Shown here: in pieces, positions 3,812-11,412 of the stretch
How positions within the stretch are numbered: position 1 is the first letter of the stretch
Layout of the letters: the number at the start of each line of letters is the position of its first letter
Source: a virus
Virus record (IMG/VR): IMGVR_UViG_3300008107_000056
Location: 2,700-66,699 of that record
Length of the DNA stretch: 64,000 nt
Reading direction: 5' to 3' (one strand)
Translations under genes and position numbers: made by a program
The notes under the pieces: generated by a model
What the model saw: the letters and a program-made list of their open reading frames with translations, nothing else
What the model was told of the DNA's origin: nothing
Database searches by the model: none

Positions 3812-4012
3812 TTAATCTGTGACTCTAGTGAATCTTGAAACGAAACTTTCTACGTAACAACTATACTCATTTTCTCCAGACAATCTTTCATGACTCATGT
3901 TGCCTTCTTTAATATAGTGTACCCAAGTTTTCCCCTCAATATCGAGCACGTCTAATACATGAAAGTATGTGCCCCTACCATCCCACCAACGTGATCCAGT
4001 CTCAACTATCAT
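3812..4012 (-). CDS. Small hypothetical protein
   Basis: 66-aa ORF coupled between primase and helicase; AAGGAG upstream. Confidence 0.6.
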   Translation of the reverse strand: MIVETGSRWWDGRGTYFHVLDVLDIEGKTWVHYIKEGNMSHERLSGENEYSCYVESFVSRFTRVTD

Positions 4013-5102
4013 TCTTTTTCTCCTTTGGATATTTTTTCATTAGCAATTCTAATTTTATTTTATTATCTGTAGCAGAATCTAAAATACTTTTGATCGTAAA
4101 AAGTTTACCATAACGTTTGAACGCATCACTAGCGTCTTTAATATCATCTTCCCATGGGGGTATGGCTACCAACCACTCATTCTCCATAGCATACTGTACT
4201 AACCCCATACCAGTATGATCCCTGTCTGGAACAACAATAACTGTTTTACCTAGACTATTAATTATAGCACGTTGTCTGTCGTTGGGTAAATTAGTTAATA
4301 GTCCAACTCCATTTACTGCCAATGCATCAAAAGGTCCTTCTGTAACCAAAACTATTTTGTTTGAATAATTTTGTTTATCTATATTGAATACATAACCGCT
4401 TTGACTTTCACTCAAATATTTGGGACTACCTGAAACTACTTTTCTAGCAGTATAGCCTATGAGCTTTTTTTGATGATAAAATGGTATTATTAATCTATCA
4501 TTATATCCAGGCATGGGACAATAATGCCAGTCATAGTCATCTAAATCATGTCCTCTATCAAGCAAATATTCTAAACACCTAACACTATCATCATATTCTA
4601 ACAAAGCATTAACTAAAGGTATTGAATCAGGTGGCAGATACTTTTCATGAAAATCCAGTTGAGCCACAGCTTCAACATCATTATTGTCCAATAATTTAAG
4701 AGCTTCTAAACTCCACTCATTTATCTTACTGGAAGGAACATTTAACCATTTGAATAATTTTTTATTTTTTACACTTATTTGTCTGCCAGGATTATTGTCC
4801 AATAATTTAAGAGCTTCTAAACTCCACTCATTTATCTTACTGGAAGGAACATTTAACCATTTGAATAATTTTTTATTTTTTACACTTATTTGTCTGCCAG
4901 GTTGCCAACTAGTCTTATAGCCGCAATTGAAACAGTGATATGTAAATCCAGACCCATGGCTAATGAATCCACCTCTTTGTCTTGTGTCAGTAGTTTCGCC
5001 ATTGTGTACACAGCAAGGTGCGTCAAAACTCATCCAACCAGAGGAAGTTTGTTTTCTTTTAAAAGGTAGATATGATAGCAGTTCAGCCTGTATGGCAGTC
5101 AT
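4002..5102 (-). CDS. gp61: DNA primase (Zn-binding plus TOPRIM; T4 gp61-like) with an internal 37-aa duplication
   Basis: PCCVH...YHCFNC Zn site, RLIIPF...GYTAR, TOPRIM VTEGPFDAL...VPDRD, KDASD. Confidence 0.88.
   Translation of the reverse strand: MTAIQAELLSYLPFKRKQTSSGWMSFDAPCCVHNGETTDTRQRGGFISHGSGFTYHCFNCGYKTSWQPGRQISVKNKKLFKWLNVPSSKINEWSLEALKLLDNNPGRQISVKNKKLFKWLNVPSSKINEWSLEALKLLDNNDVEAVAQLDFHEKYLPPDSIPLVNALLEYDDSVRCLEYLLDRGHDLDDYDWHYCPMPGYNDRLIIPFYHQKKLIGYTARKVVSGSPKYLSESQSGYVFNIDKQNYSNKIVLVTEGPFDALAVNGVGLLTNLPNDRQRAIINSLGKTVIVVPDRDHTGMGLVQYAMENEWLVAIPPWEDDIKDASDAFKRYGKLFTIKSILDSATDNKIKLELLMKKYPKEKKNDS
4680..4901. repeat. Perfect 111-bp tandem duplication (2 copies) inside the primase
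   Basis: 4680-4790 is identical to 4791-4901; encodes PGRQISVKNKKLFKWLNVPSSKINEWSLEALKLLDNN twice. Confidence 0.95.
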
Positions 5103-5108
5103 GCTATT

Positions 5109-5137
5109 ATTTTAGCTTCTATAGAGTATTTTGTCAA
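5109..5137 (-). promoter_or_regulatory. Sigma70-type promoter for the primase operon
   Basis: TTGACA-17 nt-TAAAAT, ending 6 nt before ATG 5102. Confidence 0.75.
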
Positions 5138-5900
5138 TAGAACCGATAGTCTTAGTATACCTAAACATTAGATAATTGATATTATCTATATCAGTTATTG
5201 TAATTGGCGATGTGCCATTTTCAGATGAGTATGACTCAGTAGTGATTGGGGTGCAGGCATCCCAGCTAGTTGGTGCAGAATTTGACAATGAACCTCTAAT
5301 TTCTAAATTGCCTGTAAAATTGGTAAAGTATGCTTGTATTGAATGTGTACCATTATTTCCTTTACCATCTCTATTGGTAGATATTGGACCTGAAGTGTAG
5401 ATATTGTTCTGACCTTGCAAAAATGATAACTCTTCACTAGGAATAAATTTAGAAATAATTCCGTCAACAACTTCTATTTTTCCCTGTAAATCGCTAGCAC
5501 CGTCAATATATGTTGGCAATAGTTGAGTATTTGAAACTTGTAAAATACTATACACATACTGACCTGATTTGAAACTTGTAGGGATATCATTTACGGTTAA
5601 TGTTAGTTGTGTTTTACCTTTTAAATTAAATGTTTCACCGTCATCTAGCACAGTTAAATTTTTAGAAACAACTTCTTTATTAGTGACATAGTCAAACAGT
5701 TTAAATACAAAGGTCTTTGTACTAACATCAATAGGACGTTGATCGCCGTTTAAAAAGTTGAATTGAAGCGTGTTGGTAACGCCTTTTGCTAGTTTTGCAT
5801 ATCCGTGATACATTATATCCACCCCATGTTTGGTAGAATTTTCCAAATCTAAAAAGACCCGGATGGCTGGAGTATATAAATAGACTGGTAAATTCAACAT
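5112..5900 (-). CDS. Hypothetical protein, probable late virion/baseplate component
   Basis: Beta-rich ORF; start set at ATG 5900 (MLNLPVYLY) by a TAAATA box 5 nt upstream (5906-5911). Confidence 0.65.
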   Translation of the reverse strand: MLNLPVYLYTPAIRVFLDLENSTKHGVDIMYHGYAKLAKGVTNTLQFNFLNGDQRPIDVSTKTFVFKLFDYVTNKEVVSKNLTVLDDGETFNLKGKTQLTLTVNDIPTSFKSGQYVYSILQVSNTQLLPTYIDGASDLQGKIEVVDGIISKFIPSEELSFLQGQNNIYTSGPISTNRDGKGNNGTHSIQAYFTNFTGNLEIRGSLSNSAPTSWDACTPITTESYSSENGTSPITITDIDNINYLMFRYTKTIGSIDKILYRS

Positions 5901-5932
5901 GCACGTATTTATTGTTACAGGAATTCTAGAAG

Positions 5933-6310
5933 GTGAACGAACTATTGAAAAACAATTTCCCATTCCTAACCTGCATCAGATGCAATGAGATTGAGATCGT
6001 AGGGATCATAATCAATCAAAATGACAGCGTTTTAAGCATCTACGATTTTGGGGCTATACACAACGACACTGAAAAACAGCAACTCTTAGATTTAGGGGAT
6101 CAGTGGTGGTGGGAAAGCAATCGAAAGATCCCAATTAATATTTTCCTAAAAGGCGAAATGGACTTGTTTCGCAGATATATCAAAACACTGAACAGCAAGG
6201 ATATAGAGCTTGTTTTTGGTCCAGTTGTTAATTTAAATGATATATCAGAAAAAAGGGTTAAACGTAAAAGTATTCAGCTAGTTCGGTCTGTTAAGAAAAC
6301 CCGTAGCTGA
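5933..6310 (+). CDS. Hypothetical protein
   Basis: 125-aa ORF with GTG start and AGAAGG upstream; canonical TATAAATA at 5875-5882. Confidence 0.7.
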   Translation: MNELLKNNFPFLTCIRCNEIEIVGIIINQNDSVLSIYDFGAIHNDTEKQQLLDLGDQWWWESNRKIPINIFLKGEMDLFRRYIKTLNSKDIELVFGPVVNLNDISEKRVKRKSIQLVRSVKKTRS

Positions 6311-6878
6311 TACCTTCACAAATTTTGTTCATTTGAACAACAATAGCGTGGGCATACGCAACTGCGTGACTCTTTTTAAAACTATAAGAATCGTCTGTCT
6401 TTTCCCATATTTCATCTTTAATACTATCCCAACCTTTTGTTTCACAAGTTGGAACTAGGTGTTTCTTACCTGGACGTAGTATTGCTAAGAACATGGCTAA
6501 TTGTTCAATGCTACGTGGCTTTAATCGTGCAATTAAATCATGATAACCATTGACGTGGAAGATTAAGTCACAAAATTCTTTTTGTTCTAATAAATCCCAT
6601 AGTGGTTCAATTTTTAGTAAATTTACAATCTCTTCTTCAGATTTTATATCTTTATAGATACCAACATTTAAAAAGTCTACTTTAAAGTATCCTCTTTTTT
6701 CAGCATCATCATAATCTAAACTGGCAAGACCTGTTAATGGATCAGTTGGGACTTGATGCAAGTAGACACCAGTATTGTGTTTTTTGATTTCATCATTATC
6801 AATTCTTGATGCAGGAATATGCTTTAACAATTTTAAAGCAATGTCTCTATCAAAAAAATCAATATCAATATCAGGCAA
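6291..6878 (-). CDS. Miniature DnaE-like (family C DNA polymerase III alpha core) protein
   Basis: PDIDIDF, KHNTGVY, GYFKVDFL, LAILRPG and YSFKKSHAVAYA correspond in order to DnaE PDFDVDF, KHAGGVV, GLVKFDFL, VALFRPG and YGFNKSHSAAYA; TTG start with AAGGAG SD. Confidence 0.85.
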   Translation of the reverse strand: MPDIDIDFFDRDIALKLLKHIPASRIDNDEIKKHNTGVYLHQVPTDPLTGLASLDYDDAEKRGYFKVDFLNVGIYKDIKSEEEIVNLLKIEPLWDLLEQKEFCDLIFHVNGYHDLIARLKPRSIEQLAMFLAILRPGKKHLVPTCETKGWDSIKDEIWEKTDDSYSFKKSHAVAYAHAIVVQMNKICEGISYGFS

Positions 6879-7551
6879 TGCCAGTCTCCTTACATATTTC
6901 TTTTACCAGTGCAATTTCACTAGGATATGTTTTAAATCTTTTTACCCAATAGGATGGATCAATAATAGTTGCCACAATATCTAATTGTTCGTCATTAAAT
7001 TTTGACAACATATCAGTTCCGCTTTTACAATTTAAAAGTAACCACGGACTAATGAGTCCATCTGCAATTTGTCTAACTGCACGATTAATATTAACATAGT
7101 TGAAATAGTGTGTAAAATCTGCTTGATTTTCGTCTGCCCATTCCATCATAGTTGACAATGATCTCTGTATGGCAGCATCAGCTGGTTCTGTTTTTATTAT
7201 TTCGGATAGATAGGTATAGTAGAGTTCATCGCGGCACCAATGATCGAGCTTAACTCCGGATTTGATAACATAATCCACAAACTTGTCAGGGTAGATAGGA
7301 TTAACATTATTGACAAAAGAACCAAACTTAACGAAGGCGTTATAGTAAGGGCTTTTACAAAATTCTTCATACGTTTTATCTTTTTTAGCATTTTGTGTCA
7401 ATCTGTAAAATCTATTATATGTCATAAAGCCTGCTTGCACACGCTTCTCATCTTTTTGTAGAGCTCTACGCTTATTCTCACACATGTGGGCAACTAAAGT
7501 AGCTTCTTTAGTATAGCCTTTACCACAGTGAACACAAGTGTAATTACTCAT
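6871..7551 (-). CDS. Hypothetical protein with an N-terminal C2H2/C2HC-like zinc finger
   Basis: YTCVHCGKGY...LVAHMC; start at ATG 7551 overlaps the upstream stop; its own stop overlaps the mini-DnaE start. Confidence 0.7.
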   Translation of the reverse strand: MSNYTCVHCGKGYTKEATLVAHMCENKRRALQKDEKRVQAGFMTYNRFYRLTQNAKKDKTYEEFCKSPYYNAFVKFGSFVNNVNPIYPDKFVDYVIKSGVKLDHWCRDELYYTYLSEIIKTEPADAAIQRSLSTMMEWADENQADFTHYFNYVNINRAVRQIADGLISPWLLLNCKSGTDMLSKFNDEQLDIVATIIDPSYWVKRFKTYPSEIALVKEICKETGIA

Positions 7552-7999
7552 ATTCTTTTCTTTGCTTCTTGTCGAACCCCAACTGGTCAAATAAACTTTC
7601 GATGTCATTTTTATCCATTAAACTTGCTTGTAACTTAACGTCACTCATCTTCATAGCTGGGTTAAGTTCGGCAATTAATTTTTCAATTTTAACTGCTTTC
7701 TCTTTTTTACCTGCGGCTAGATACGGGTGATATGCTTTTGCACCTGTACCACAACCTGCAAATAATTTCCAAAGTAGACCTTTGTGATCTTTACTCAATG
7801 ACCAATGATTCTTATTCACAAGTTCATTGGTCATTTCTACAAACCATTCTTGTACATCTCTGTCACCTTGTACATTACTAACATAGCGCATCAAAATATA
7901 CGGACTAAAAGATTTACGTTCTTCATCAGTCCAATTATTAAATGCGTCTTTATCACGCATATCTACACCATTTAATTCTTTCTTAATATCAAGTGCCAT
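7544..7999 (-). CDS. Probable clamp-loader small subunit (T4 gp62-like)
   Basis: KSFSPYILMRYVS...NE...HPYL resembles gp62 homologues of T4-like phages; size and replication context fit. Confidence 0.5.
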   Translation of the reverse strand: MALDIKKELNGVDMRDKDAFNNWTDEERKSFSPYILMRYVSNVQGDRDVQEWFVEMTNELVNKNHWSLSKDHKGLLWKLFAGCGTGAKAYHPYLAAGKKEKAVKIEKLIAELNPAMKMSDVKLQASLMDKNDIESLFDQLGFDKKQRKEYE

Positions 8000-8282
8000 G
8001 GTCTTTACTCAAGTTATATATTAGTATACATTGATCTAGTGCATGACGCAATGCCTCATTTGTTTGGGCTTCTCTTCGAATTTCTCCCCAAAGTTTACTT
8101 TCCATTATGTGACTGTGCAATGATCTTCCATCACCAGTTCTAGGATCAAAGTTTGGATCCTCTGGATCGTAGTCCCAACCAACAACTGTGCGTGTGCTAG
8201 GATCTGCACCAAATTCTCTAGAATACACAACGTTGTCGTGACGTTCGTATATTAATTTTGTGCCTGGTTTAAGTTGTCCCAT
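7989..8282 (-). CDS. Hypothetical protein
   Basis: 97-aa ORF, tightly coupled within the operon. Confidence 0.7.
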   Translation of the reverse strand: MGQLKPGTKLIYERHDNVVYSREFGADPSTRTVVGWDYDPEDPNFDPRTGDGRSLHSHIMESKLWGEIRREAQTNEALRHALDQCILIYNLSKDHGT

Positions 8283-8286
8283 AATA

Positions 8287-8793
8287 TCACCAACATTTAG
8301 AATAATCTAATATCTCACTTTGACGACTGACTTCTTTAACAAAGTAAGCACATACTGGATTTTCTCCGGCATGTAATGGAGTTGCCAATAATTGTCCAAT
8401 ACGCATTTTTGGAAAATACCATTTGACATCTTGATAAACATTGACAATGTCTACAGGATAAAATTCTGGTTTGAAACTACTAAGTGGATTGAAAGTAAAA
8501 GCACTAAATCCCCTGTCATTCAAACTAGTAAGTGGTAGCACTTCCATTTCACCAGTACTTTCTGGATCGCCAACTACCATGCACCAATCCAGTGGCATCT
8601 GAATTTGCCAAGGGCCAATTTGCAATACTGCCGCAGGACATGTAAATGATTCTAAAAAAATCAATGGTTGAAAAAAGTAATCTGGATTTTGATTGTCGCT
8701 GTTATCTAGTACAGCAAATCTACAGTCCTCGTCTACTTCTTCTGGTAGATCATTCAAATAGAATGTCTCATCTTTGAGTGTTAAAATTTGCAT
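8287..8793 (-). CDS. Hypothetical protein
   Basis: 168-aa ORF; start overlaps the uvsW stop (TAATG). Confidence 0.75.
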   Translation of the reverse strand: MQILTLKDETFYLNDLPEEVDEDCRFAVLDNSDNQNPDYFFQPLIFLESFTCPAAVLQIGPWQIQMPLDWCMVVGDPESTGEMEVLPLTSLNDRGFSAFTFNPLSSFKPEFYPVDIVNVYQDVKWYFPKMRIGQLLATPLHAGENPVCAYFVKEVSRQSEILDYSKCW

Positions 8794-10250
8794 TAATATT
8801 TCACCTTATCTATTGTAAATGGGTACTTTGCTTCTTTGTAGAATTTTTTACGTTCTGTTAAATGTCTTTTAGCGTATTTGGTACTAGCAGTTATATCCCA
8901 AATTTGGACGAAGTCTTTGTCTTCCGCTTTTCTAATACCACGTCCAATAGATTGGATAACGCGGACAAAGCTCTTTCCGGGTTCAATAAGAACCAAATTA
9001 AAGATCCTAGGAATATTAAGGCCCACAGCGGCCACACCATAAGTCGCCACAATAATCTTATCATCACTTGTACGTACTTCATCATATTCTGTTTTCCTGT
9101 CTTTTGTCTTTACTGTGCCATTAACAAAAACACTGTTCGGCAAATTTTCTGTTAAAAACTTTCCACACTCAATTCTATCAACTAGAACAAGCGTATTACC
9201 TGATTCGTTAATGCCAGCTATCATACCAGCAATATGTGCCAGTCTATCCTTGTCAGTTACTAGATATTTTAATTCTTCTGCGTAACCGCCAAACTCTTTC
9301 CATTCTTGTGTTTGGATAACATTAACATGACAATTAGCAAGATGGCCTGCCTCTTGTAGTTCATGTGCCGCAATTCCACCAACAACTGGTCCTAAACTTG
9401 CAACAATGCCCTCAAGTTCATAATGTGCCTTTGGTACTGTGCCTGTTAATCCCCAACGTATTGGACAATGTGCAAATGCTCCTGTTAATAAATTTTTTAA
9501 TACATCTGCTTTAGCCATATGTACTTCGTCAACAATAACACAAACAACGCCTTCAATAAACTCTAACAAGCTCATTGCATCGTCTATTTCTTTACCCTTC
9601 TTTTCAAGGATATTAAGTGACTGCCAAGTGCAAATTGTGTGTGTCTTGTCTAAGTCTTTACGGTCACCATAATACACACCAACATCTAAACCAACGTTAC
9701 GATAATCTTCTTCTGTTTGTTCTACAAGTCCTTTGTTTGGTACAATAACAAGTGTACGACCATATTTCTCACACATATGACTCATTGTCGCAGTCATAAT
9801 AGTTTTACCAGCACCAGTCGCAAGTTCCTGTATACTTTGAGGATTTTCAAAGAAACGATTAATTGCATCAGGCTGGTAATCACGCAACATAATGGGCTCG
9901 CCTTCTTTGACGTGTCCCTTAGGCCAAGTTTTACCTTTATCAGACCAATAAGATTCAGTTACTTTTTCAAACTCTAATTTAATTGGTTTACGTAAGTCTA
10001 CTAAATCAATATCATATTTGTCTTGCTCAATAATTGGCAAAACTCTGTCTAGCATACTTAGATAAGTTGTACCACCTAATCCAAAGAAGCTAACTGTCCC
10101 GTCCCAACGTCCTAATTTAAACGCAGGCATATGGCGTGCATACGGCAACTCGTACTTAAACTTAGACACTAATTTTTTTCTTGTGTCCAAGTCCAAGCCT
10201 TCAATTTTTACATTGACTTCATCTTTTAAAATTATTTTACAAGTTGACAA
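8793..10250 (-). CDS. uvsW: UvsW-like SF2 DNA helicase
   Basis: LRDYQ, ATGAGKT, VDEVH, GLTGT and QSIGRGIR motifs; TTG start at 10250 with GAGG SD. Confidence 0.92.
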   Translation of the reverse strand: MSTCKIILKDEVNVKIEGLDLDTRKKLVSKFKYELPYARHMPAFKLGRWDGTVSFFGLGGTTYLSMLDRVLPIIEQDKYDIDLVDLRKPIKLEFEKVTESYWSDKGKTWPKGHVKEGEPIMLRDYQPDAINRFFENPQSIQELATGAGKTIMTATMSHMCEKYGRTLVIVPNKGLVEQTEEDYRNVGLDVGVYYGDRKDLDKTHTICTWQSLNILEKKGKEIDDAMSLLEFIEGVVCVIVDEVHMAKADVLKNLLTGAFAHCPIRWGLTGTVPKAHYELEGIVASLGPVVGGIAAHELQEAGHLANCHVNVIQTQEWKEFGGYAEELKYLVTDKDRLAHIAGMIAGINESGNTLVLVDRIECGKFLTENLPNSVFVNGTVKTKDRKTEYDEVRTSDDKIIVATYGVAAVGLNIPRIFNLVLIEPGKSFVRVIQSIGRGIRKAEDKDFVQIWDITASTKYAKRHLTERKKFYKEAKYPFTIDKVKY

Positions 10251-11412
10251 TGTCTGCCTCTGCTGATTTATGTTCGTTGTACTGCAAAGAAAAAATAGAA
10301 TTTTTAACGGTATTGATAATACTGTAATGAGATGTAACATATCTGTTTACAAACAAACAGACATCAATATTGTGGTGATTTTTTAATAAACTTTTTGGAA
10401 ATTTATTGCTCAAAAATACCCAATTGGGAGCAGAAGACGCTTCTTTATTCAAACCAAAGTCTTTAATCACTTTATTAAAAGTGACGCCGTCCTCTTCATT
10501 TTTTCTTCTAAAAAATACGCCTATTTGATCTAAGCTAACTCCAACATTGATTAGATCACTAACCCATTCATTTAAAGTATCTGCACTAATATTTTCGTCA
10601 ACAAATACAGCAGTATTCACGTTCATTTCTTTAATTAAAGAAAGAACTTCTGTCCTAGAGTGCTTTGCTTTGTCAATAAAGAATTTTTGATTATGACTTT
10701 GTTCGTATATTTTGTACAAAGAATTTAATTTGATTAGTTCTGATATTTCATCAGCAACATTGTCTGCATAAATGTGAACACCTAATTTAGTACTTTCAAT
10801 TAATGCTGATTTTAAATCGTTTGTTTCAAAATCACTCTTAATATTTTTAAATTTATAACTATCGTTTTCTTTTATTAATGTTGGCACAAAATTTTCAAAT
10901 TCATCTTTGATTTGATTATATTTGTCAATATAGTTTTTGATTTCGTCATCAATAACAAAACTATCAGACAAATTGTCTAATATAAAGGCCAAACTGACTT
11001 CGTTTAGATCCAGTGTCCAGTTTTTATTATCAGGATCCCATTCAGCTCTGGTGAGCTTTTCTTTAGTATTAAGTGTTCTAAACAATGTTAACAAATTTTG
11101 ATCAAAGGGAAACTTAATAATAAATCTTTTAGAAATTGGATCTAATGTAACAGATTTTGTGTTATCAATAGTTCTTAAATTAAATTTATAAACTGGAGTC
11201 TCTAACATATTTTCTATGTCAGTGACGCCAATTTTTTTAAATTGATTTCGATATTTTTTGACAAGTCGTAAAGCAATATCGGCCTGTTTATGCGTAAATG
11301 CTTTACCATTGAAAATTTGGTTAGCTAGACTTTGAGATATTTTTTCATCAAAGTTACTGACGTGTATACGTCCTAAACCAAACTGTTCGACTAAATCTTC
11401 AATATATTTCAT
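10237..11412 (-). CDS. Hypothetical protein upstream of uvsW
   Basis: 391-aa ORF preceded by a consensus sigma70 promoter. Confidence 0.75.
   Translation of the reverse strand: MKYIEDLVEQFGLGRIHVSNFDEKISQSLANQIFNGKAFTHKQADIALRLVKKYRNQFKKIGVTDIENMLETPVYKFNLRTIDNTKSVTLDPISKRFIIKFPFDQNLLTLFRTLNTKEKLTRAEWDPDNKNWTLDLNEVSLAFILDNLSDSFVIDDEIKNYIDKYNQIKDEFENFVPTLIKENDSYKFKNIKSDFETNDLKSALIESTKLGVHIYADNVADEISELIKLNSLYKIYEQSHNQKFFIDKAKHSRTEVLSLIKEMNVNTAVFVDENISADTLNEWVSDLINVGVSLDQIGVFFRRKNEEDGVTFNKVIKDFGLNKEASSAPNWVFLSNKFPKSLLKNHHNIDVCLFVNRYVTSHYSIINTVKNSIFSLQYNEHKSAEADIVNL

Follow-up and report, generated by a model that had tools for sequence, protein, structure and literature searches.

A 195-residue phage protein as the probable C-terminal unit of a two-gene minimal DNA polymerase III alpha in RaK2-like jumbo phages

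Is a protein of 195 residues that carries the catalytic motifs of a much larger bacterial DNA polymerase an enzyme in its own right, one part of an enzyme, or a remnant? The question is raised by a minus-strand open reading frame (ORF) in a 64,000-nucleotide stretch of viral DNA, referred to here as the window, which covers positions 2,700 to 66,699 of the IMG/VR virus record IMGVR_UViG_3300008107_000056 (66,699 bases, estimated to be 18% complete). An earlier sequence-only reading of the window had described the product as a self-contained 'mini-DnaE' related to the alpha subunit of DNA polymerase III (Pol III), coupled to a zinc-finger (Zn-finger) protein and a clamp-loader-like gene. According to the analysis reported here, RaK2-like jumbo phages (group 2.2) have a minimal Pol III alpha made from two genes, and the ORF very probably encodes its C-terminal unit (C-unit). 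The observation is genuine but had been described before, and the 'mini-DnaE' is half of an enzyme.

Homology, fold and conservation of the C-unit

The ORF was recovered with the length, position and strand first reported for it (Table 1), and all of the motifs that had been listed were present in the same order: PDIDIDF at residues 2-8, KHNTGVY at 33-39, GYFKVDFL at 63-70, IFH at 106-108, LKPRSIEQL at 119-127, LRPG at 134-137 and YSFKKSHAVAYA at 165-176. The catalytic or metal-binding residues are D3 and D5 of the DxD strand together with K66/D68, and the shortened fingers are marked by RPxK at 135-138 and FKKSH at 167-171. Translation begins as MPDIDIDF from a TTG start codon at 6878-6876, preceded by a 6-nt spacer and an AGGAGA box at 6890-6885; close relatives begin at the same residue, with either ATG or TTG as the codon. 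Both the strong Shine-Dalgarno sequence and the overlap with the stop of the upstream Zn-finger gene were as previously noted, the TGA of that gene lying at 6873-6871 and the two genes sharing 8 nt.

In the PHROGs collection, residues 3-188 of the C-unit matched positions 8-193 of phrog_11778 ('DNA polymerase', 197 positions) with an E value of 1.2e-66. A tblastn search with the C-unit matched 96 phage records, all at less than 60% identity and the GenBank phage copies at no more than 48%; the matched phages were all jumbo phages of the RaK2, 121Q, PBECO4, PA5oct, Atu_ph07, XacN1, SCTP-2 and Phosso types. The palm family PF07733, applied at its gathering score, gave no match in the C-unit or anywhere else in the 66,699-base record. 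The neighbouring genes also had no Pol III match in Pfam, PHROGs or NCBIfam, in agreement with the earlier statement that no Pol III-like pieces flank the ORF.

Structure prediction and superposition on DnaE, which had been proposed as a check, were carried out. An AlphaFold2 (AF2) model of the C-unit, built from an alignment of 94 sequences, had a mean predicted local distance difference test (pLDDT) score of 95.9, and Foldseek searches with this model returned C-family polymerases at all of ranks 1-16. With VIA-align, residues 1-192 were superposed on residues 400-781 of E. coli Pol III alpha (2hnh) at Z 9.9 and a root-mean-square deviation (rmsd) of 3.8 over 185 aligned residues. The top 15 rows of this comparison were all C-family enzymes, and the row that followed dropped to Z 3.2. 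The palm with DxD and K.D and the proximal fingers are common to the C-unit and to bacterial Pol III alpha/DnaE and PolC, with Z values of 9.0-9.9 over 185-190 residues for the structures compared (2hnh from E. coli; 2hpi, 3e0d and 4iqj from Thermus aquaticus; 5lew and 7pu7 from M. tuberculosis; 3f2b and 3f2c of PolC).

Residues were placed on the E. coli protein by sequence as well. By hhalign, C-unit residues 53-138 correspond to E. coli dnaE 540-642, so that K66/D68 are equivalent to K553/D555, and by phmmer residues 163-177 correspond to 752-766, the stretch in which FKKSH lies. C-unit residues 3-53 stand for E. coli 401-540, with approximately 89 residues fewer, and we take the location of this gap to be the thumb. 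Residues 138-163 stand for E. coli 642-752, where approximately 85 fingers residues are gone, and in the structural alignment the C-unit ends at about E. coli 781-811. The names of the thumb, fingers, HhH/clamp-binding and OB regions are used in what we take to be the sense of the E. coli structure paper. Both this alignment and Pfam bear out the earlier statement that the PHP domain, the thumb, much of the fingers and the clamp-binding and OB parts are absent from the ORF. The resemblance goes far beyond chance, and the C-unit is homologous to the core of Pol III alpha and retains all three catalytic aspartates.

The C-unit family comprises at least 5,002 protein clusters (word-indexed search, E ≤0.001, 5,107 candidates), and an exhaustive search gave 442 representatives at 50% clustering. 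Among the 120 clusters listed, lengths were mostly 191-197 aa, and the JGI name was often 'DNA polymerase III alpha subunit'. In the alignment of 94 sequences, which extends down to 30% identity, D3, D5, K66, D68 and P136 were invariant, and D7, H34, G37, R135, K138, K168 and H171 were at least 90% conserved. A D.D.D pattern was found inside the first 30 residues of 85 out of 88 representatives. Between the C-unit and a relative of 81% identity dN was 0.125 with dS saturated, and the median dN/dS over the 46 gene pairs with usable dS was 0.143 (range 0.05-1.14). The gene is selected and not decaying, as had been proposed, because its length is near-constant over 5,002 clusters and its median dN/dS is 0.14; D3, D5 and D68 are invariant besides.

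Two unusual sequences were met in these searches. P0219 (5,419 aa, 24 matched stretches) is a repetitive, eukaryote-like protein matched over a short biased stretch, and it was rejected as spurious. P0251 (233 aa) begins with ~110 residues of a C-unit and continues with a match to the unrelated phrog_9266; a chimera or a frameshift in the gene call, or else a broken copy, is the probable cause.

The second half of the palm

Complete genomes of RaK2 and Phosso were scanned with PF07733, and each held one ORF above threshold (2/2 records), of 172 aa in RaK2 (E 3.4e-9) and 177 aa in Phosso (E 7.9e-13). Both cover profile positions 19-96. These N-terminal units (N-units, ~170 aa) belong to phrog_11127 and end in '...GRGSS...EFL(K/N)' in the two phages, the terminal EFL(R/K/N) or a close variant being found in all copies examined. 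By hhalign, N-unit residues 96-169 correspond to E. coli 320-393, with RGSS at 138-141 in the place of R362-G363-S364-G365. In bacterial Pol III alpha the GRGSS loop is where an incoming nucleotide is bound by its triphosphate. The break between the two units falls at E. coli ~393/~400, within one domain. Full-length phage DnaE proteins (phrog_405, 1,190 positions; Bacillus and Cellulophaga phages) are homologous but unsplit, and on this profile the N-unit lies at 356-436 and the C-unit at 576-679.

Two claims of the sequence-only reading are changed by this result. Not every core motif is kept, the GRGS-type nucleotide-binding palm motif being absent from the 195-aa ORF, and the protein is not self-contained, since the N-terminal palm half with GRGSS (E. 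coli 320-393) is encoded by a separate and distant gene of ~170 aa. The parts missing from the ORF were found elsewhere as split pieces to this extent only, as an N-unit gene in relatives. A proposed search for gp43 or other DnaE pieces had a similarly divided outcome, with none in the 18%-complete record and both an N-unit and a family-B polymerase in relatives.

The N-unit family comprises 1,380 clusters. PF07733 was present in all 120 of those listed, and their length was 169 aa except for one of 168 aa. In RaK2 the N-unit gene (ORF162, annotated 'DNA polymerase') lies ~33 kb from the C-unit gene (ORF124), and in Phosso the two genes, both annotated 'DnaE-like', are ~224 kb apart. In each of the four IMG/VR relatives with a completeness of 71% or more, a single N-unit and a single C-unit are encoded on one strand at a distance of 175-186 kb; a relative that is 40% complete has the C-unit only. 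Searches of GenBank with the C-unit and the N-unit gave nearly matching counts per host genus (C-unit/N-unit: Escherichia 34/34, Pseudomonas 11/11, Erwinia 8/8, Salmonella 8/8, Xanthomonas 4/4, Yersinia 4/4 and Klebsiella 11/10), and the surplus N-unit matches were the full-length DnaE genes of Bacillus and Cellulophaga phages.

Natural fusions of the two units were found as three clusters of 375-376 aa from public metagenomes (P0167, P0391 and P0392), all on short contigs of 2.4-5.9 kb. In P0167 the N-unit is followed by a 10-residue linker and then by the C-unit, and PF07733 runs continuously over the junction (residues 97-207 on profile positions 12-121). A quick tree of 108 C-unit sequences was built and rooted at the midpoint; in it the fused forms make up one clade (SH-aLRT 100) amid split forms, with support of 86-91 at the enclosing forks. 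The topology suggests a single secondary fusion of the N- and C-units.

Assembly of the two proteins was modelled with the C-unit of the window and the N-unit of its closest near-complete IMG/VR relative (G001). The complex scored 0.90 in three of three runs and the best of three controls scored 0.00; of 80 solved complexes 58 attained this mark, and of 110 mismatched pairs only 2. The runs shared at least 96% of their contacts, and partner pLDDT was 85 or more. In the model, C-unit residues 2-9, which form the DxD strand, contact N-unit residues 130-143 (IVWGVGRGSS). This score may reflect likeness to solved unsplit homologues, the two units being halves of one domain, and is no proof of binding between these copies. 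Together, the three fused forms and the complex model support an assembly of the N- and C-units.

Described relatives and the proposed role of the enzyme

A phage-specific minimal catalytic module of Pol III alpha in group 2.2 jumbo phages is described in passages of Iyer et al. 2021 (Viruses 13:63; PMC7824862). According to these passages, the module is split between two distant genes, one for an N-terminal protein that binds nucleoside triphosphate (NTP) and one for a C-terminal protein that binds Mg2+ and template; the remaining Pol III domains are missing, and the phages possess a family-B polymerase as well. The description was computational, and the role suggested is synthesis of one strand or repair, with the module taken as a model of ancestral Pol III. 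From the same passages, group 3.2 jumbo phages have a host-like DnaE with PHP that serves as the main polymerase. As far as the passages go, the split enzyme is the same thing as that of the window, whose ORF is the C-terminal unit (phrog_11778), and the system is not the uncharacterised one that had been supposed. RaK2, 121Q, PA5oct and Atu_ph07, which were named by our searches as relatives, belong to the group 2.2 of these passages, and the copy in the window shows no essential difference from that group; its source is an uncultivated, freshwater-type phage. The present data add to the passages the split point at ~393/400, the family sizes and their constancy, purifying selection, the three fused forms, the complex model and a constant convergent 125-aa neighbour. 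Elsewhere, a Pol III alpha subunit had been annotated in the 2018 Atu_ph07 paper as shared among Rak2-like phages, and the Sharanji paper lists a 'DNA polymerase III DnaE'. The PaBG paper and a 2026 survey of bacterial polymerases hold nothing on the split enzyme, and the main text of the PA5oct omics paper mentions no DNA polymerase.

E. coli alpha is one chain of 1,160 aa, whereas the phage palm is cut into two proteins. Unlike bacterial alpha, the phage enzyme has no HhH/clamp-binding, OB or tau-binding part and no PHP domain: PHP was absent from the C-unit ORF and was recovered in the genomes of 0/4 relatives, with a control that matched 14/14 genomes, and HHH_6 was likewise found in 0/4 relatives with a control that matched 14/14 genomes. 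In cyanobacteria the dnaE gene is split and rejoined through a split intein. It is likewise a C-family gene in two distant pieces, but it is joined by the intein and split elsewhere, whereas the phage units are without an intein and would have to associate non-covalently.

The following mechanism is proposed. The C-unit would supply the metal-binding half of a Pol-beta-like palm (D3, D5, K66/D68) together with shortened fingers. Alone it would be an incomplete active site, because the GRGSS loop and the remaining half of the palm belong to a separate protein, the N-unit. The two units most likely assemble non-covalently, the N-unit strand IVWGVG being predicted to pair with the C-unit strand DIDIDF and so to restore one nucleotidyltransferase domain. 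The resulting enzyme would lack PHP, the thumb, ~85 fingers residues and everything past about E. coli 781-811 (clamp-binding, OB and tau-binding regions). From the model we infer that the units physically assemble, and the product would be catalytically active. Because a family-B (gp43-type) polymerase accompanies it, the enzyme probably serves as an auxiliary polymerase and not as the main replicase, with repair, recombination-dependent synthesis or the synthesis of one strand as its task; an ORF of this family, of 895-1,013 aa, was found in 4/4 complete relatives.

Several observations weigh against the two-gene reading. The only Pfam match of the C-unit is to the fingers family PF17657, with a score of 16 bits that is below the cut-off of 22, and single-sequence hhalign comparisons to E. 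coli gave modest probabilities of 68% for the C-unit and 87.6% for the N-unit. One of the 46 C-unit gene pairs had a dN/dS of 1.14. No N-unit was found in the 66.7-kb record of the window, a result that is uninformative at 18% completeness and is attributed to it, the genes being 33-224 kb apart in relatives; the partner for this phage is thus drawn from relatives and not seen in its own genome. A family-B polymerase was equally absent from the record, with the same restriction. For the complex model the N-unit was borrowed from a relative, and the C-units of that relative and of the window are 67% identical. Reports of activity, binding or phenotype were absent from the searchable literature, outside of which most subscription journals lie. 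Finally, templated polymerisation may be altogether beyond an enzyme that has neither thumb nor clamp-binding region.

This last point leads to the alternative that survives best, that the assembled N- and C-units are no templated DNA polymerase but some other nucleotidyltransferase, for example one that extends primers, modifies DNA, acts as a terminal transferase or makes a nucleotide signal. The missing thumb and clamp-binding region would fit such an enzyme, as would fingers reduced by about half, the complete family-B replicase of relatives and the inconstancy of a proofreading partner, a DnaQ-like domain being above cut-off in 1/4 relatives. We nevertheless regard it as unlikely, given that the C-family-specific fingers residues R135, K138, K168 and H171 are at least 90% conserved, that the gene is placed in a replication/recombination module and that the fold matches C-family polymerases only. 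The DnaQ-like exonuclease (epsilon) was also considered as a constant partner of the enzyme and rejected: it is clear in RaK2 only, weak in Phosso, not found in G001 or G002 and absent from the record of the window.

Gene neighbourhood, remaining explanations and distribution

Coordinates of the C-unit gene and of its neighbours are provided in Table 1. Among 80 related loci, the Zn-finger gene was found in 77, the 151-aa gene in 74, the convergent 125-aa gene in 78, the primase in 68 and UvsW in 64; these counts are lower bounds, as contig ends cut many of the loci.

Table 1. Features of the window at and around the C-unit gene
Feature	Position	Strand	Basis
Probable C-terminal unit (C-unit) of split minimal DNA polymerase III alpha, 195 aa	6291..6878	minus	ORF, phrog_11778, conservation, AF2, fold match
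Ribosome-binding site, spacer and start of the C-unit gene	6876..6891	minus	sequence
C2H2-type Zn-finger protein, 226 aa, unknown function	6871..7551	minus	phrog_11058, E 1.3e-64
Conserved protein, 151 aa, unknown function	7544..7999	minus	phrog_11758, E 5.2e-23
Gene of 125 aa, unknown function, convergent to the C-unit gene	5933..6310	plus	phrog_11637, E 1e-32

For the Zn-finger gene the preferred start is the ATG at 7551, which gives 226 aa and overlaps the stop of the 151-aa gene, and the Atlas form is also 226 aa; with the upstream ATG at 7608 the product would be 245 aa. Its label was confirmed as a true C2H2-type finger. The finger is N-terminal (C6-x2-C9-x12-H22-x-C24), and the profile of the family matched C2H2 fingers only among PDB sequences (best E 8.3e-9, residues 5-27). 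Among 41 sequences the ligands H22 and C24 were invariant and C6 and C9 at least 90% conserved; the single sequence was below the Pfam cut-off (18.9 against 25.2 bits). In the AF2 model (pLDDT 92.7) the rest of the protein is an all-helical domain, for which no significant fold match was obtained. The only match spanning most of the model was the helicase loader T4 gp59 (1c1k), a weak structural lead (Z 4.1, rmsd 12.3, TMq 0.28) to which hhalign added no sequence support (probability 0.2%).

This protein had been put forward as the source of DNA binding for a split polymerase, and it could be a dedicated DNA-binding subunit that replaces the thumb, with or without the N-unit. Its gene is upstream on the same strand in the 77 loci mentioned above, its stop overlaps the start of the C-unit gene in the window, and next to a genuine finger it has a helical domain, modelled with confidence, whose fold matches none known. 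The overlap is, however, lineage-specific (≤20 nt in 16 of the 77 loci, with 158-3,538 nt between the genes in the other 61), and one gene in RaK2 and three in Phosso stand between the C-unit gene and the position of the Zn-finger gene, which was assigned in those phages by position and size only. The block is moreover a conserved replication module with helicase, primase and UvsW, so that neighbourhood says little. We therefore give a Zn-finger subunit only a small chance. Of the expected synteny, conservation of the gene held up and conservation of the overlap did not, and the link between the two genes is local. The proposal of a split polymerase stands insofar as the C-unit is its catalytic subunit; the partner indicated is the N-unit and not the Zn-finger protein, which shares the overlap in only 16/77 loci.

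A broader version, in which the 168-aa, 97-aa, 151-aa, C2H2 Zn-finger and convergent 125-aa proteins, a block that always accompanies the C-unit, are accessory subunits that serve the mini-polymerase, seems comparably improbable. If it were true, the block would replace the thumb and clamp-binding modules in a multi-subunit 'minimal C-family holoenzyme' of small proteins without a recognised fold.

Less credible still is a stand-alone enzyme, with the 195-aa protein making up the whole of a streamlined nucleotidyltransferase. Its three catalytic aspartates and fingers motifs are present and conserved, and it folds confidently alone with the pLDDT of 95.9 given above; but the GRGSS half of the palm is not in the ORF and is carried by a separate, co-occurring gene, fused N- and C-unit forms are known, and the ORF begins right at a break internal to a domain. 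A decaying remnant, or exons or extein halves joined through an intron or split intein, would fit an ORF that covers only part of a far longer bacterial protein but can practically be set aside, in view of the near-constant length, invariant catalytic residues and dN/dS of 0.14, of a separate start and stop for each unit with the genes 33-224 kb apart, of N-unit ends at ~E. coli 393 and C-unit starts at ~400 that leave no space for intein halves, and of the lack of any Pfam intein or Hint domain in either unit.

The label 'clamp-loader-like' for the gene at 7544-7999 was not upheld. PF16790 matched 0/40 members of the 151-aa family, the profile of the family found nothing relevant and no gp62 among PDB sequences, and hhalign gave a probability of 0.15% against T4 gp62. 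The sole lead was an Atlas neighbour cluster of the 151-aa gene in which 11% of members have PF16790, and no sequence support for the small subunit of a gp62-type clamp loader was obtained. In RaK2 the gp44 clamp-loader gene (ORF166) follows the N-unit gene (ORF162) at a distance of four genes downstream (RaK2 143000-155000), which places real clamp-loader genes near the N-unit and not the C-unit. ORF162 is also close to a GroES-like gene annotated 'head morphogenesis', and a GroES-like ORF adjoins the N-unit in closer relatives of the window too.

The convergent 125-aa gene is the most constant neighbour of the C-unit. Its 3' end overlaps that of the C-unit gene by 20 nt, and the same layout is shared with RaK2 (ORF125w) and Phosso (CDS 438). 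The linkage might reflect antisense control or a functional tie.

The module of the window is T4-like and comprises a DnaB-like helicase, primase, UvsW, UvsY, UvsX and a gp32-like single-stranded DNA-binding protein, after which terminase and tail-sheath genes follow. The order UvsW, four small genes, polymerase piece, convergent small gene, virion protein, primase and helicase matches that of RaK2. Virion-structural annotations are interleaved with replication genes around the C-unit (RaK2 ORF123 and ORF126), and in the window a 283-aa ORF (5112-5963, minus) has a weak match to phrog_14467, 'virion structural protein'. A perfect 111-bp tandem duplication (4680-4901, 2.0 copies, 100% match) lies within the primase ORF (4002-5102, minus), where it keeps the reading frame and doubles a 37-aa segment (PGRQISVKNKK...LLDNN); primase matches in related loci are shorter, and the duplication could be recent or an assembly artefact. 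The UvsW ORF (515 aa, 8793-10340, minus) overlaps an upstream 391-aa ORF (10237-11412, minus) by ~100 nt, and the true UvsW start is probably further downstream, as the UvsW_N match begins at residue 35.

DNA near-identical to the window was not found in GenBank phages. Outside the possible source, DNA runs of 11 studies contained 73-94% of the words sampled from positions 5900-8300; most of these carry the label freshwater, lake, aquatic or 'fungus metagenome', and the phage lineage is therefore widespread. One metatranscriptome contained a single 204-nt contig at 6197-6400 and a second RNA run gave no match; since a contig reveals neither its strand nor transcription and an RNA library may contain DNA, no expression is deduced from them.

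The split mini-polymerase family is very large and under strong selection. Two proteins of ~170 and ~195 aa would rebuild a catalytic core without PHP, thumb or clamp-binding parts, and these phages thereby offer a natural experiment on how little of a C-family polymerase suffices.

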